From an uncultured Chloroflexia bacterium (GTDB taxonomy: Bacteria > Chloroflexota > Limnocylindria > Limnocylindrales > CSP1-4), in NCBI GenBank assembly GCA_963812745.1, contig CAWEWE010000004.1:332734-396733 (forward strand): a DNA stretch of 64,000 bases, given 5' to 3'. The first letter of the stretch is position 1; each line of letters opens with the position of its first letter. Both the position numbers and the translations under genes were made by a program. Under the pieces are notes generated by a model. That model did no database searches. It was not told where the DNA came from and worked only from the letters and a program-made list of their open reading frames with translations. Positions 16,201-34,667 of the stretch are shown one piece after another.

Positions 16201-16484
16201 CGTGACCTTCAGCTTCGAGGGCACGACCGAGAGCTTCGAGGCCGGGACCGGGGCATGGGTCGTTCCTGCCGGCGTACCTGCCGGGCAGCTCACCGAATCC
16301 CAACGATTGGTACCGGACCACGGACGTCGGATTCTCGGAAGGCGCGGTCGTCGGCATGACGCCGACCGATGCCAACTTCCGGACGCTCCACTTCGGGTTC
16401 GGCTTCGAAGGGATCAGCACATCGGCGGAGCGGAACGAGGTGATGTGCCGCGCGATGAACCACCTGGGCATCACCTGCTCATAG
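13292..16484 (+). CDS. secreted zinc carboxypeptidase, peptidase M14 family, with large C-terminal extension; apparent frameshift near 16275-16295
   Basis: Signal peptide MRDRRKSFLATLSTIFLISALLVPVGAGAA. M14 signatures are LQHAREWIGGE (HxxE zinc ligands) and LVSNPDGY. The C-terminal ~70 aa (...PNDWYRTTDVGFSEGAVVGMTPTDANF...HLGITCS*) are in a different frame that ends at TAG 16482-16484. The track ORF continues to 16552 in an Arg-rich frame. Confidence 0.7.
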
Positions 16485-20724: not shown

Positions 20725-20791
20725 CCGTGAGCCCCCATTTGATGGATGTTGAGTATAGGCAGGGGCAGTCGAGGGAACAATGATGTGGTGG

Positions 20792-29827: not shown

Positions 29828-31504
29828 TCAGCGCTTCCGGCCGCCGCCGAACAGCGTGCCGAAGATCCCGCGGATGATGTCCTGACCGAGCCGCGACGTC
29901 GCGACCCGGCCGCCGGTCCGCACGACGTTGTCGATCGTCCGCTGGCGCGCCTTGGCAGTAGCGGCGGCCTCCCGCTCCTCGGCCTTGCGCTGCCGCTCCG
30001 CCTCACGCGCGGCGCGTTTCTGGGCGGCCTCAACCTCGCGCTGCTGGCGGGCGATCTCGCGAGACTGCTGCGCGGGTGTCATGTCGTTCAGGCCGCCCGC
30101 GGTCGTCGGGTCGAGTCCGGCGCGCGTCGCCTCCTCGATCGCGGCCTGACGAGCCGCCGCGACCCTGGCCGTGATCCGTTCGTGGGCACTGTCGCGATCG
30201 ACCGTGGCGCCGTACTTGGTCGCGAACGTGCTGCCGGCGACCGCCGCCGCGAACGCGTCCGGCGGCATCGGTGCCATCAGCGAGTCGGGCGGCAGCAGCC
30301 GCGTGGCCGCCAGCGGCGTGGGCACCCCGCGCGGCGACAGGACCGTCACCAGCGCCTCGCCCGTCCCGAGCGAGGTGATCGCCTTCTCGACGTCGTAGAA
30401 GTCGGTCATCGGGAAGGTCCGCGCGGTCTTGCGCAGGGCGTCGGCGTCGTCGGGCGTGAACGCGCGCAGGGCGTGCTGCACGCGGTTGCCGAGCTGGGCG
30501 AGCACGGCCGCCGGCACGTCGGTGGGCGCCTGGGTCACGAAGTACACGCCGACGCCCTTCGATCGGATGAGTCGGGCAGTCCGCTCGATCTGGTCCATCA
30601 ACGCCTCTGAGGCATCGTCGAAGAGCAGGTGCGCCTCGTCGAAGAAGAAGCACAGCTTCGGCTTGGGCAGGTCGCCCGCCTCGGGCAGGGTCTCGTACAG
30701 CTGGGCGAGCATCCACAACATGAACGTCGAGAACAGGCGCGGCTGGTCCATGACATCGGCCAGCTCCAGGATGCTGATGACACCCTGGCCATCGGCCGTC
30801 GTGCGGATGAGGTCCTCGACCTCGAACTCCGGCTCGCCGAAGAAGACGTCCGCGCCCTCCTGCTCGAGCACGACGATCGACCGCAGCAGCACGCCGACCG
30901 TCGCCGTCGACATCCCGCCGTAGTCCTCGAGGATCGCCTTGCCCTCATCGGACGAGAGGAACTTGAGCGAGGTCGCGAGATCCTTCAGGTCGAGCAGCGG
31001 CAGGTCGTTGTCATCGCAGTACTTGAAGACGAGGGCGAGGACGCTCGTCTGCGTCTCGTTGAGGTCGAGCACCTTGCCCAGGAGCAGCGGACCGAACGAG
31101 CTGACCGTGGCGCGGACCTGTGCACCGTTCTTGCCCGACAGGGACAGGAACTCGACCGGGTGCCCCGACGCCTCGAACTGCCAGCCCAACGAGGCCACGC
31201 GTTCCTGGACCTTGGGGTTCGCGCCGTCGCCGGGGAGGGCGATGCCCGACAGGTCGCCCTTGATGTCGGCCGCGAACACCGGGACGCCCGCCTTTGACAG
31301 CTGCCCCGCCAGCAGCTGGAGCGTCTTGGTCTTGCCGGTCCCGGTCGCCCCTGCCACCAGCCCGTGGCGGTTGAGGATCGACATCGGGATGCACACCCGG
31401 ACATCGTTGAAGAGCTCGCCCTCGTGCATCGCGCTGCCGACGATCAGGCTCGGCTCGTCGAACGCATAGCCGGCCGAGATCGCGTCGCGGAATGCCTGAT
31501 CCAT
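29828..31504 (-). CDS. DUF853 (helicase HerA-like C-terminal domain) P-loop NTPase, YjgR-like
   Basis: Walker A GATGTGKTKTL, and Walker B/DEAH-like LCFFFDEAHLLF. The basic/coiled C-terminal tail is typical of the DUF853 family. Confidence 0.7.
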   Translation of the reverse strand: MDQAFRDAISAGYAFDEPSLIVGSAMHEGELFNDVRVCIPMSILNRHGLVAGATGTGKTKTLQLLAGQLSKAGVPVFAADIKGDLSGIALPGDGANPKVQERVASLGWQFEASGHPVEFLSLSGKNGAQVRATVSSFGPLLLGKVLDLNETQTSVLALVFKYCDDNDLPLLDLKDLATSLKFLSSDEGKAILEDYGGMSTATVGVLLRSIVVLEQEGADVFFGEPEFEVEDLIRTTADGQGVISILELADVMDQPRLFSTFMLWMLAQLYETLPEAGDLPKPKLCFFFDEAHLLFDDASEALMDQIERTARLIRSKGVGVYFVTQAPTDVPAAVLAQLGNRVQHALRAFTPDDADALRKTARTFPMTDFYDVEKAITSLGTGEALVTVLSPRGVPTPLAATRLLPPDSLMAPMPPDAFAAAVAGSTFATKYGATVDRDSAHERITARVAAARQAAIEEATRAGLDPTTAGGLNDMTPAQQSREIARQQREVEAAQKRAAREAERQRKAEEREAAATAKARQRTIDNVVRTGGRVATSRLGQDIIRGIFGTLFGGGRKR

Positions 31505-31630
31505 GGGTCCTCCGAGGCAGCCGAACGGTCCGTTCGAGGGGAAGGCGCAAGGGTATCATCGGACCCCCGCGCCGCCACTTCGCACCTCACCGCGGCGGCC
31601 GGCACGGGATGCTCACAGCCGGAGGAAGCC

Positions 31631-32035
31631 ATGCGCATCGAGGATGTCGAGGGCATCGGCCCGACCAATGCGGCCAAGCTCGAAACGGCGGGCGTCAGCA
31701 GCACGGACGACCTGCTGGAGCGGGGTGCGAAGCCGTCAGGCAGGCAGTCGCTCGAGGCTGCGACCGGCATCGCCCACTCGCTGATCCTCGAATGGGTCAA
31801 CCACGTCGACCTGATGCGGATCGACGGGGTGGGCTCGGAGTATTCCGACCTGCTCGAGGCGGCCGGGGTCGACTCGCCGGCCGAGCTCGCCCGACGCAAT
31901 GCGGCCAACCTCGCGACGACGATCGACGAGGTCGTGGCCGCCCGCCCGAACATCGTCCGCCGTGCGCCGAACGAGAAGGAGCTCCAGGGCTGGATCGACC
32001 AGTCGAAGAAGCTGGACAAGGTGGTCGAGCATTGA
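31631..32035 (+). CDS. small tandem helix-hairpin-helix protein (DUF4332-like)
   Basis: Two HhH-like repeats (IEDVEGIGPTNAAKLETAGVSSTDDLL and MRIDGVGSEYSDLLEAAGVDSPAELA). RBS GGAGGAAG 4 nt upstream of ATG 31631. The stop lies 13 nt before mscL. Confidence 0.5.
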   Translation: MRIEDVEGIGPTNAAKLETAGVSSTDDLLERGAKPSGRQSLEAATGIAHSLILEWVNHVDLMRIDGVGSEYSDLLEAAGVDSPAELARRNAANLATTIDEVVAARPNIVRRAPNEKELQGWIDQSKKLDKVVEH

Positions 32036-32048
32036 CCGGCCGAGGTCG

Positions 32049-32447
32049 ATGATCGCCGAATTCCGGGGGTTCCTGCTCAGGACGAATGCGCTGGCGCTGG
32101 CCATCGGGGTGATCATCGGCGGCGCGCTCGGCACGGTCATCAACTCGCTGGTCAACGACATCATCATGCCGCCCATCGGCCTCGCCCTGGGCGGCGTGGA
32201 CTTCTCGTCGCTGAAGGTCGTCCTCAAGGCCGCGGTCGGCGGTGATCCGGCCACCGAGGTGGCGATCCGCTGGGGCGCCTTCATCAACGCAGTAATCGCG
32301 TTCATCGCGATCGCGCTGGTGGTGTGGCAGCTCAGCCGGACGTTCGTCAACGAGGAACCGCCGACCGAGGTGAAGACCTGCCCGTTCTGCAAGGAGGCCA
32401 ACGCGCCTGACGCGACACGCTGCAAGGCCTGCACGAGCGAGATCTAG
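32049..32447 (+). CDS. mscL: large-conductance mechanosensitive channel MscL with C-terminal CxxC...CxxC zinc-ribbon-like tail
   Basis: MscL signature FRGFLLRTNALALAIGVIIGGALGTVINSLVNDIIMPPIG. The C-terminus ends KTCPFCKEANAPDATRCKACTSEI. Confidence 0.85.
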   Translation: MIAEFRGFLLRTNALALAIGVIIGGALGTVINSLVNDIIMPPIGLALGGVDFSSLKVVLKAAVGGDPATEVAIRWGAFINAVIAFIAIALVVWQLSRTFVNEEPPTEVKTCPFCKEANAPDATRCKACTSEI

Positions 32448-32479
32448 GCCGCCGGTTCCGCGGGCCGCTTCGGCGCCGC

Positions 32480-32684
32480 GGAACATCTGATGTTCCGATC
32501 GACGCCTGGGCGGCGCCTCGAGCGGCGGTTCTTGGCTTTTGGAACCTCACGATGTTCCAATCAGCGGCTGAAGTTCGCGAAGATCGGTCCTCGTTCGCCG
32601 TTTGGAACCTCCAGTGTGTTCCAACCCGCCGAGCAGCCATGGCGATAAGGCGGTTCGATCGCCGGTCGGAACATAGGGTGTTCC
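32480..32684. repeat. array of four regularly spaced (61-64 bp) inverted repeats GGAAC-N7-9-GTTCC (mostly TTGGAAC...GTTCCAA)
   Basis: Site 1 (32480-32496) is GGAACATCTGATGTTCC, a perfect 17-bp palindrome. Site 2 is 32539-32560, site 3 is 32602-32624 and site 4 is 32668-32684. All lie in the 600-bp non-coding stretch between mscL and GGDEF-EAL gene 1. Confidence 0.6.
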
Positions 32685-33044
32685 AAAGGCGGCCGCCGGC
32701 GAGGTGACGATCGCTCAGTCGTCTCTCGGTTGCTCCCTGAGGTACCCATCCGGGACGACGCCCACGACCTCCATCCCGTACCGAGCCGCGATCTCCTCGA
32801 GTGCGGTTTCGTCCATCCCGGTCCGCAACCCCGCGGCCAGCTCGTCGAAGAGTCACGTCGAAGCCGCCGACGTCGATCATGCGCGCCTCGCCCGGACCGG
32901 GCACGAACGCACCATCACCGAGTCTCACGATCGAGGGCCTCCCTCCAGACGCACCGGGACGTTCGTACCGGTGATTATCGAGGGTCCGTTGGGGTACAGA
33001 TAGGTCCGCCGCAGTCTGGCGCCGCCTGGGGATGCGCGAACAGG

Positions 33045-34667
33045 ATGTCCAAGAAGCCGAGGAAGCTCCCGCGATCGTCGTCCCGAGCGATCAGCCGCCT
33101 CACCACGACCGCGTTCGTGTTCGATGTGCTCGTCGCCGTGATCGCTGTCGGGGCATCGACCGCGCTGGTCGGCGGCGCGCTGGGTCCAGGGGGAACGACC
33201 CTGGATCCGGTCGTGCTCGTCGGGGCGGCGGGCGCGACGATGGCCACCCTCGTCCTGGGCGTGCTGGCGTTCGCCACGGTGCGCATCCGCCACCACGCAG
33301 CCGTCCTCGAATCCGAGCGCTCGGATCTGCGCGAGGCCTATGACCGGGCGCGGCTGGACTCGCTCCGCGACGGGCTGACGGGACTCGGCAACCATCGAGC
33401 ATTCCAGGAAGAGCTCGACGTCCAGGTCGCGACGGCCCGGGACGAGGACGCGCCGCTGGCCCTACTCATCGTCGACGTCGACGACCTCAAGAAGATCAAC
33501 GACCGACGCGGTCACGCGGCGGGCGATGAACTGCTTCGCGCCGTCGCCCAAGTCATGCACGCGAACCTGCGGCGATCGGATCGTGCGTACCGGATCGGCG
33601 GCGACGAATTCGCATTGCTGCTGCCGGGCTGCGGTCTCGACGACGCGGCGATCATCGCCAATCACCTCCTGGCAGCGACGCTCGGCGGCCACCATGGTCG
33701 GATCGGCTCGTTCTCGGTCACCATCGGCATCTCGGCGTTCCCCACGCCGAGCTCGGATCGACAACAGCTGCTCCACCACGCCGACGCGGCGATGTACGCC
33801 GGCAAGCGCCATGGCCGGACGAAGGTGGAGCTGTTCGATCCGCGGCGCCACGGCATCGCCGACGACACCCGGACACTCGCGCAGCTGGTCGCTGCGGTCG
33901 AACGCGTGACCACGAAGGGCCAGTTGCAGGCGGTCTACCAGCCCATCTACTCGCTGCGCACTGGTGCGGTCTCGGGGTTCGAGGGCCTTGTCCGGCTCGG
34001 ACCCAACGCGGAGTTCGACGCACCGACCGCGCTGTTCGTGGCCGCCGAGGCGACCAGTCGCACGATCGAGCTCGATGTCGTCTGTGCCGAGACGGTCCTG
34101 GCCGGCGCGCGCGATCTTCGACCCGACCAGTACCTCTCGATCAACCTGTCGCCGCGGACCCTGGAGTCCGACGCGTTCAGCCCGCTCGAGGTGCTAGCCC
34201 TCGCCCGCCGCTACGGCGTCCCGCCGACCCAGCTGGTCATCGAGCTGACCGAACGCGAGGCCGTGGAGGACCTCGAGAGCCTCCGCTCGGCCGTGGCCGC
34301 ATTGCGACGCCAGGGCGTCCGCATCGCCCTCGACGACATCGGTGCCGGGAACGCCGGGTTGCGGCTGTTGAGCGAGGTCGACTTCGACATCATGAAGATC
34401 GACCTGTCGCTGGTCCGGGCGGGCGCCACGCATGAGCCGTCGGAAGCGGTGCTCCGCGCGCTCGGGAGCTTCGCTCGCCAGCGTGGCCACCAGATCGTCG
34501 CCGAAGGCATCGAGACCCCCGATCTCCTCGAGGCCGTGCTCGAGCTGAACTACGACGCCGGGCAGGGCTACCTGTTCGGGAAGCCCGGATCCACGATGGC
34601 GATGGCGGACCTCAAGCTGGTGGACCTGATCACCGGCGGCGAGGCCTCCGAGCATCCCGCGGCCTGA
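33045..34667 (+). CDS. membrane-anchored diguanylate cyclase/phosphodiesterase (2 TM + GGDEF + EAL)
   Basis: GGDEF domain (LTGLGNHRAFQEEL...DELLRAVAQ...RIGGDEFALLLPG) and EAL domain (YQPIYSL...ELTEREAVEDL...DDIGAGNAGL...QGYLFGKP). ATG at 33045; the track ORF from 32730 has an Arg-rich extension that is unlikely to be real. Confidence 0.85.
   Translation: MSKKPRKLPRSSSRAISRLTTTAFVFDVLVAVIAVGASTALVGGALGPGGTTLDPVVLVGAAGATMATLVLGVLAFATVRIRHHAAVLESERSDLREAYDRARLDSLRDGLTGLGNHRAFQEELDVQVATARDEDAPLALLIVDVDDLKKINDRRGHAAGDELLRAVAQVMHANLRRSDRAYRIGGDEFALLLPGCGLDDAAIIANHLLAATLGGHHGRIGSFSVTIGISAFPTPSSDRQQLLHHADAAMYAGKRHGRTKVELFDPRRHGIADDTRTLAQLVAAVERVTTKGQLQAVYQPIYSLRTGAVSGFEGLVRLGPNAEFDAPTALFVAAEATSRTIELDVVCAETVLAGARDLRPDQYLSINLSPRTLESDAFSPLEVLALARRYGVPPTQLVIELTEREAVEDLESLRSAVAALRRQGVRIALDDIGAGNAGLRLLSEVDFDIMKIDLSLVRAGATHEPSEAVLRALGSFARQRGHQIVAEGIETPDLLEAVLELNYDAGQGYLFGKPGSTMAMADLKLVDLITGGEASEHPAA

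Follow-up and report, generated by a model that had tools for sequence, protein, structure and literature searches.

Four palindromes of the form GGAAC-N7-9-GTTCC lie between mscL and a gene with GGDEF and EAL domains in an uncultured Chloroflexia bacterium (GTDB Limnocylindrales; CSP1-4), and the question raised by this locus is which gene, if any, they serve. The locus was studied within a stretch of 64,000 nucleotides (contig CAWEWE010000004.1 of assembly GCA_963812745.1, positions 332,734 to 396,733), which is called the window here. Positions are those of the window unless a related locus is named. The original prediction, made from the letters of the window, had read the palindromes as phased sites for a dimeric regulator, or as RNA stem-loops, in a long untranslated leader of the GGDEF-EAL gene. 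Our comparison with related loci leads to a different answer. The palindromes are very probably the cores of an accessory tandem array, which varies in copy number, sits at the 3' end of mscL in a convergent junction, is under selection only in its arms, and is unrelated to the control of the GGDEF-EAL gene.

Four palindromes form the cores of a tandem array

An exact search of the window for GGAAC-N7-9-GTTCC returned four matches, all in the array, and none elsewhere. Dinucleotide-preserving shuffles gave an expectation of 0.11 matches and none of 100 shuffles reached four, so the palindromes are highly non-random, as had been claimed. Widening the spacer to N5-12 added no site in the window, and palindromes with one mismatch were not in excess in the rest of it (9 found, 14 expected from shuffles). 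The 5-mers GGAAC and GTTCC occur at normal frequency across the window, without over-representation. The array is not an assembly artefact, since the same four palindromes, with one linker substitution relative to the window, are found in a second assembly (L001; ENA ERZ25039547) that is about 99% identical, with about 110 differences over 12.4 kb.

The palindromes (Table 1) start 61, 63, and 64 bp apart, and their centers are separated by 61.5, 63.5, and 63.0 bp. The TT and AA that were thought to flank every pair of arms are present on both sides in palindromes 2 and 3 only, while palindrome 4 has them on the right side and palindrome 1 on neither. Similarity between units reaches past the palindromes, as seen in the unit alignment and in repeat families D1 and D5. 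The units stand head to tail in intergenic DNA, with a period of 61-64 bp (window) or 62-73 bp (relatives). Their consensus is TTCGTTCGCCGnTTGGAAC-loop-GTTCCAAnCGGCGGC, and a 47-column consensus derived from 14 units, TTCGTTCGCCGnTTGGAACATnnGGATGTTCCAAnCGGCGGCnGAG, is itself palindromic with arms of about 13 nt. Outside the core, units of one array are about 55% identical, and the repeats are about 65-70% alike overall. Tandem Repeats Finder detected nothing in the array, as the divergence between units is too high. A covariance model (R1), for which 14 units were used, scored the window units at 35-44 bits, with the runner-up match in the window at 16 bits. Two units of the related locus L170, which were left out of model building, scored 35 and 28 bits. 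The model misses a site at 20774-20786 that had been noted earlier as a half-site at 20775; this match exists but has no partner arm, and we attribute it to chance.

Table 1. Positions of the array, its palindromes, and the neighboring features in the window
Feature	Position	Strand	Description and evidence
mscL	32049-32447	+	132 aa; Pfam PF01741, E = 5e-30; C-terminal CxxC...CxxC tail
9-bp direct repeat GGCCGCCGG, left copy	32447-32455	none	Read from sequence; weak evidence alone
Tandem array	32455-32705	none	Four ~62-bp units with palindromic cores; unit alignments and covariance model R1
Palindrome 1	32480-32496	none	GGAACAT-CTG-ATGTTCC; 7-bp arms; N7 between 5-bp cores
Palindrome 2	32539-32560 including TT/AA (core 32541-32558)	none	TTGGAAC-CTCACGAT-GTTCCAA; N8
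Palindrome 3	32602-32624 including TT/AA (core 32604-32622)	none	TTGGAAC-CTCCAGTGT-GTTCCAA; N9
Palindrome 4	32668-32687 (core 32668-32684)	none	GGAACA-TAGGG-TGTTCC, then AAA; N7
9-bp direct repeat GGCCGCCGG, right copy	32691-32699	none	Brackets the array with the left copy
Cupin pseudogene	32715-32928	-	L006 alignment and tblastn in two frames
Conserved ~80-bp block	32953-33031	+	Directly 5' of the GGDEF-EAL start; orthologue alignments, 12/12 loci
GGDEF-EAL gene	33045-34667	+	540 aa; Pfam GGDEF and EAL; ATG conserved in orthologues; neighbor of the array, outside the element

The array follows mscL, whatever gene comes next

The roughly 600 bp between mscL and the GGDEF-EAL gene consist of the array, a degraded minus-strand cupin gene, and a conserved block of about 80 bp. 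The palindromes occupy a gap of about 270 bp from the mscL stop (32447) to the cupin stop (32715) and lie 3' of both genes, not in an untranslated leader. Of the 163-aa cupin that is intact in relatives, the pseudogene retains residues 1-31 and 120-163, in different frames. The rest was lost by an internal deletion of about 278 nt (residues 32-119, as judged against L006, L165, and L171) and a frameshift; the same deletion is present in L001. Intact orthologues carry the Cupin_2 domain (PF07883), and the L006 copy encodes 163 aa on the minus strand. In the ENA record, a 193-aa gene without a Pfam match is annotated at this place, also on the minus strand (window 32347-32928; L001 6299-6880). 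This open reading frame (ORF) is spurious and fuses the antisense of mscL, the array, and the cupin remnants.

About 24 related Candidatus Limnocylindrales loci, with MscL identity of at least 70%, were compared, and the array was found in five lineages. The window and L001 have four units followed by the cupin pseudogene. L170 (MscL 98%) has at least two, its contig ending inside the array. L162 (MscL 91%) has four units and has lost the cupin gene, and its array stands just before the conserved block with the GGDEF-EAL gene directly next. In L006 (MscL 86%), three units are followed by an intact cupin gene. L080 (MscL 78%) also has three units, with pheA next, on a contig that holds neither cupin nor GGDEF-EAL gene. 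The unit number is 3-4 wherever both ends of the array are known, and about 19 loci have none. A further contig, L181, breaks off 20 nt past mscL and is uninformative in this respect. In all five lineages the array is 3' of mscL, with the first palindrome 27-73 nt past the mscL stop. The unit of palindrome 2 is missing from L006, where it leaves a 52-nt gap in the alignment, and the loop of palindrome 3 is similar to that of unit c of L080, ATCCAGCGC.

Among the loci that lack the array, the mscL and cupin stops overlap in L163, L167, L168, L171, and L172 (ATCTAG on both strands; L163 at ~645-650, L171 at ~2013-2016, and L172 at ~1498-1501) and are 10 and 33 bp apart in L165 and L007, respectively. 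L011, L160, and L161 have neither array nor cupin gene, and in L010, L081, L082, and L169 mscL runs directly to pheA without an array. All four combinations of array and cupin presence and absence were thus seen. The array-bearing loci are scattered on a neighbor-joining tree of mscL, implying several losses or several gains. L002-L005 lack a segment of about 1.4 kb (window 31567-32953) that comprises the 3' part of the DUF4332 gene, mscL, the array, and the cupin gene. They keep the conserved block, which abuts the sequence on the HerA side. Within this lineage, DUF4332 and mscL therefore come and go together as an indel cassette.

The conserved block itself is present whatever lies further upstream (window, L002-L006, L011, L160, L162, L163, L165, and L168). 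It contains an invariant GGACC...GGTCC inverted repeat, its halves about 21 nt apart, and an invariant GTACAGATA. Only 2 of its 14 predicted pairs show compensatory changes, and it has no Rfam match. Judging from the orthologue alignments, this block is likely to be what serves the GGDEF-EAL gene as promoter, operator, or leader.

An operator array or a structured 5' untranslated region of the GGDEF-EAL gene, as originally proposed, would agree with the location of the window array upstream of that gene on the same strand, and with L162, where the array directly precedes the conserved block. Several observations speak against it. A minus-strand cupin gene or pseudogene intervenes in L006 and in the window, L080 has an array without a GGDEF-EAL gene on its contig, and no riboswitch or other Rfam family was matched. 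All 12 GGDEF-EAL orthologues share the conserved block, and most of them lack the palindromes, which is the outcome that the original prediction had named as counting against itself. This explanation is highly improbable, and the comparison of loci indicates that the array is not part of the control region of the GGDEF-EAL gene. The attractive picture of a cyclic di-GMP gene with a leader full of operators is thereby corrected, and the conserved candidate for its control is the block by the start codon.

Only the arms are conserved

Across lineages, identity was 84-100% for the 5-bp arms, 19-73% for the loops, 43-67% for the other array positions (linkers), and 69-91% for third codon positions of mscL. 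The difference between arms and linkers was significant, with Fisher p values from 9e-4 to 2e-8. Between the window and L170, mscL is 96% identical and the linkers only 67%, and in general loops and linkers diverge faster than synonymous sites. Thirty of the 32 arms are intact, and the remaining two have one substitution each. Across 14 units, the five core pairs show little or no variation; GGAAC/GTTCC is strictly held, and the flanking TT/AA and GCCG/CGGC more weakly. The arrays contain no gaps in which decayed units could be hidden, and the covariance model finds none. Neutral decay is ruled out because the arms remain intact next to linkers that are about 50% diverged, with no hidden decayed units, and homogenization of whole units is ruled out because identity outside the arms is only about 55% within an array. 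The alignments thus indicate purifying selection on the sequence of the arms and not merely on their pairing. Since they stay constant while loops and linkers outpace synonymous sites, the arms appear to be a selectively maintained recognition element. Comparing arms with spacers among orthologues had been suggested beforehand, and the outcome bears out that part of the original prediction.

The ends of the array provide some information on its origin. In L006, the three units are bracketed by a perfect 19-nt direct repeat, TCAGTCGCCGCCCGTCTGC (L006 3093-3111 and 3294-3312), the right copy of which is the 3' end of the cupin gene. The repeat resembles a long target-site duplication; alternatively, the junction may have been duplicated ahead of the insertion. 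L165 (1137-1165) has a 14-bp tandem duplication (GATCTAGTCGCCGC/G) of the overlapping-stop junction, which parts the mscL and cupin stops. Together with the 9-bp repeat of the window, these repeats suggest that the mscL/cupin junction is prone to duplication. At overlapping stops, an inserted array can be tolerated only with a duplicate of the shared stop region. The array may stem from a single old insertion followed by many losses or from repeated acquisition, and we favor neither. At least some of the events seem to have been recent, since the L006 repeat is perfect despite linker divergence of about 46% between L006 and the window.

These features could also belong to a selfish or mutational by-product without host function, which would be a minisatellite (variable-number tandem repeat, VNTR) or an insertion resembling a miniature inverted-repeat transposable element (MITE) at the overlapping stops. 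It would have been tolerated through the duplicated junction, would gain and lose units by slippage, and would often be deleted. The patchy presence in every combination with the cupin gene, the variation in unit number between close relatives, the direct repeats that bracket the L006 and window arrays, the duplication at the same junction in L165, and the fast divergence of the linkers all agree with this. The arms do not, as neutral decay would have destroyed them and concerted evolution would have made whole units alike. In addition, the lack of other copies in about 377 kb gives no evidence for mobility. We consider a by-product without function unlikely.

Hairpins or sites in duplex DNA

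Our favored explanation for the conserved arms, which we hold tentatively, is that the array is a cluster of extragenic palindromes similar to the repetitive extragenic palindromic (REP) sequences and bacterial interspersed mosaic elements (BIMEs), and that its stem-loops serve as a 3'-end barrier or insulator at the convergent junction while a putative factor reads the arms. An array of ~62-bp units would have been inserted between the convergent mscL (+) and cupin (-) genes. Transcription would run through it, and each unit would fold into a stem-loop in transcripts leaving mscL; the symmetry of the consensus implies that transcripts of the opposite strand would fold likewise. If such hairpins form in vivo, they could protect 3' ends or limit read-through between the convergent genes. 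The constant arms would be read by a sequence-specific factor, putative in both existence and identity.

Part of the structural evidence is consistent with hairpins. The spacer between the arms is 7, 8, and 9 bp long in 6, 6, and 4 of 16 units, respectively, and this variation suits a loop better than a rigid dimer site. It is hard to reconcile with a rigid form of the dimeric regulator first envisaged, and a generic operator for a dimeric transcription factor was rejected because the half-site spacing is not fixed. Fifteen of the 16 units fold into a GGAAC/GUUCC stem with an outer helix, with minimum free energies of -12 to -23 kcal/mol and z-scores down to -5. Palindrome 1 and its L006 orthologue, GGAACGT-CCC-ACGTTCC, differ by an A-T to G-C change on both arms that keeps the pairing. 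Folding of the whole array gave z = -2.8 (plus strand) and -4.5 (minus strand), values that are uninformative because identical arms pair between units.

Other results weigh against stem-loops of the REP/BIME kind. Covariation over 18 candidate pairs equaled that of shuffled controls, leaving no helix support beyond the invariant core, and the flanks of a unit pair with each other no better than flanks swapped between units (p = 0.31). The 5-7-bp core stem is weak alone, and two window units have ordinary z-scores of -1.1 and -1.4. No signal for a transcribed strand was found, including in a test of G.U versus A.C asymmetry; there are 19 G.U pairs on one strand and 14 on the other (p = 0.49), showing no strand bias, and the consensus is symmetric. 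There is no U-tract and no terminator-like site in 32300-33200, where the runs of T and A belong to the stem (TTGGAAC/GTTCCAA). An invariant stem sequence with free loops is unusual for RNA-binding proteins. The array is also dispensable, since most relatives lack it. Finally, model R1, run on the 64-kb window (filters off) and on 313 kb of related loci, about 377 kb in total, detects no further copy. Its best off-target matches in the window, at 16418 and 19063, are at chance level. Viral contigs gave eight matches to a two-unit pattern, an estimated chance number, and R1 sees a partial palindrome core in three of these and none in the rest.

The spacing of the palindromes also bears on this question. 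All 11 center-to-center spacings fall into two classes, 62.5 +/- 0.7 and 72.8 +/- 0.6 bp, which differ by 10.3 bp. Every spacing is at most 1.5 bp away from 6 or 7 times 10.5 bp (63 or 73.5 bp), a regularity that reflects at most 2-3 independent events. The phasing of about six helical turns that had been noted at 61-64 bp in the window is thus extended by the relatives to six or seven turns. In a multiple alignment, two linker indels change the class, apparently independently, and each is 10 nt long. This quantized spacing points to a constraint at the level of duplex DNA and away from hairpins, but it is suggestive only, because of the small number of independent events and because unit length is inherited through duplication.

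Such a constraint would be expected if the palindromes were phased sites in duplex DNA, each bound by a protein on the same face of the helix, with a higher-order complex (wrapping, looping, or a filament) assembling at the 3' end of mscL. This amounts to the mechanism first proposed without the link to the GGDEF-EAL gene, and it can be likened to the sopC centromere repeats or to the binding of gyrase and nucleoid proteins at BIMEs. The quantized spacings and the 10-nt indels are in agreement with it, as are arms that are invariant in sequence rather than merely complementary and a symmetric consensus without strand bias. On the other hand, the distance between half-sites is spread almost evenly over 7-9 bp, and a dimer bound to B-DNA would not usually tolerate such a range (about 70 degrees of twist). 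The sites are 3' of both flanking genes with no promoter-like site near, and at 63 bp apart they cannot touch without strong bending of the DNA. In the loci examined, no candidate for a binding protein accompanies the array, and the palindromes match no known operator. The phasing itself could descend from the few events mentioned above through tandem duplication. Phased duplex sites are therefore rather unlikely in our view, though a serious contender. Overall, the evidence between a hairpin and a site in duplex DNA is split.

Comparison with known systems

REP/BIME clusters in Escherichia coli are found at gene 3' ends and between convergent genes; they make the upstream mRNA more stable, are bound by gyrase and IHF, and differ among strains in copy number. 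The array shares many features with these elements of Enterobacteria and Pseudomonas, which are imperfect palindromes of about 35-45 nt with conserved arms and free loops, clustered with short linkers, extragenic at 3' ends or convergent junctions, variable in copy number between strains, and dispensable. It has the corresponding stem-loops (an imperfect palindrome of about 20-45 nt), given that nearly all units fold and that the consensus has 13-nt arms, and the corresponding extragenic position, between the mscL stop and the stop of the cupin gene or pheA. The differences count against the likeness. REPs are dispersed in tens to hundreds of copies, whereas all 16 units here are at one locus, with no other copy in the roughly 377 kb scanned, a result that would still be compatible with a family of few copies per genome. 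REPs are linked to RAYT transposases, and none was seen in the neighborhood of the array (no transposases within about 6 kb), the rest of the genome not having been searched. REPs also carry a GTAG-type tetranucleotide at the foot of the stem, and none is conserved in the unit alignment.

VNTRs of the mycobacterial interspersed repetitive unit (MIRU) type resemble the array in that both have intergenic tandem units of 40-100 bp whose number varies between close relatives, and in that whole units are gained or lost, as with unit 2, which is in the window and missing in L006. In MIRUs, however, the whole unit is similar and occurs at many loci, while the array conserves only its palindromic core, with the rest about 55% alike, at one known locus. 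The element is therefore set apart from both families, being neither dispersed like REPs nor similar over whole units at many loci like MIRUs. The sopC centromere of the F plasmid (12 tandem units of 43 bp; SopB binds the 7-bp inverted repeat in each) is comparable in its tandem inverted-repeat units and near-integer helical period. The array differs from it in being chromosomal (contigs of 0.1 to 1.8 Mb), in having no parA/parB or sopAB nearby, in its variable inner spacer, and in having only 3-4 units. Tandem or bidirectional intrinsic terminators of high-GC bacteria, which lack a U-tract, likewise place hairpins between convergent genes and can fold on either transcript. Terminator hairpins need no shared sequence, in contrast to the arms here, which are invariant from unit to unit and from lineage to lineage. 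Where relatives lack the array, the junction holds unrelated GC hairpins or overlapping stops.

A degenerate orphan CRISPR array was also considered in view of the 61-73 bp period, the partly palindromic repeats, the variation in unit number, and the presence/absence polymorphism. Similarity among the repeats is only about 65-70%, their loops differ in length as well as in sequence, and the would-be spacers are mutually related and conserved between lineages. With no array reported by Tandem Repeats Finder and no cas genes within 6 kb on either side, there is hardly any chance that this identity is correct.

Several other identities were rejected. By eye, neither the spacing nor the downstream elements of an ECF-type (GGAAC-N16-18-GTT) or a sigma-54-type (TGGCAC-N5-TTGC) promoter fit the 16 units. 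Repeats of a type III toxin-antitoxin system would have a toxin ORF downstream, and there is none. ORFs of 51-62 aa cross the array, but coding repeats or small peptides were dismissed because the period cannot be divided by 3 and indels in the loops disrupt the frames. A structured RNA family, such as a riboswitch or a tRNA-like element, was set aside given covariation at the shuffled level, the absence of any Rfam match at E <= 1 under permissive thresholds (window region and three related arrays), and a scan for tRNA and tmRNA that found none. An intrinsic terminator was discarded because 32300-33200 contains no GC hairpin with a U-tract, and a scan near the array for sigma-70 promoters and terminators was empty. 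A text search of the literature gave no matching GGAAC/GTTCC operator and no described repeat in Limnocylindria. The earlier statement that the palindromes follow no known operator consensus therefore holds, with no operator or RNA family matched.

Another possibility is a cis element not described before and restricted to a single locus. It would consist of palindromes phased at 6 or 7 turns, on which a dedicated putative protein that reads the arms, as sequence or as hairpin, builds a complex at the 3' end of mscL, and it would be gained and lost as a unit in Limnocylindrales. Such a complex might manage supercoiling or collisions between the convergent genes, or might control mscL output post-transcriptionally. 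As a complete account, we regard this as improbable.

The array provides a natural non-coding example in which arms of 5-7 bp stay constant and the rest of the unit outpaces synonymous sites, and, within an uncultured soil lineage, it is polymorphic both in its presence and in its number of units. If a factor does read the arms, the array would be a single-locus relative of REP/BIME elements with quantized helical spacing and a small, tractable system for the study of extragenic palindromes at convergent gene ends. If none does, it would be a curiosity of limited reach.

Neighboring genes

The Pfam gene order around the array is HerA-like (-), DUF4332 (+), mscL (+), GGDEF-EAL (+), pheA (-), and GAF-GGDEF-EAL (+). 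No transposase, integrase, cas, or par genes were found within about 6 kb of the array. MscL ends in a zinc-ribbon-like CPFC...CKAC tail (32376-32447) that has a weak DUF7577 match (E = 0.004) and is kept in all close homologues.

In L080, a stretch of about 270 bp 3' of the array (L080 1720-1990) has an apparently lower GC content and contains long inverted repeats (CTTGGCAAAAACTTGCAC ... GTGCAAATCTTGCCAAG, as well as cgtaatg/cattacg motifs). Rfam gave no match to this stretch, which might be a MITE or a structured RNA. In the window (29828-31504), one ORF of 558 aa makes up the HerA-like gene, which is called as two genes of 297 and 259 aa in L001 (3776-5455). The window and L001 differ by substitutions at ~30718 and ~30729 within it, and the L001 gene may contain a premature stop.

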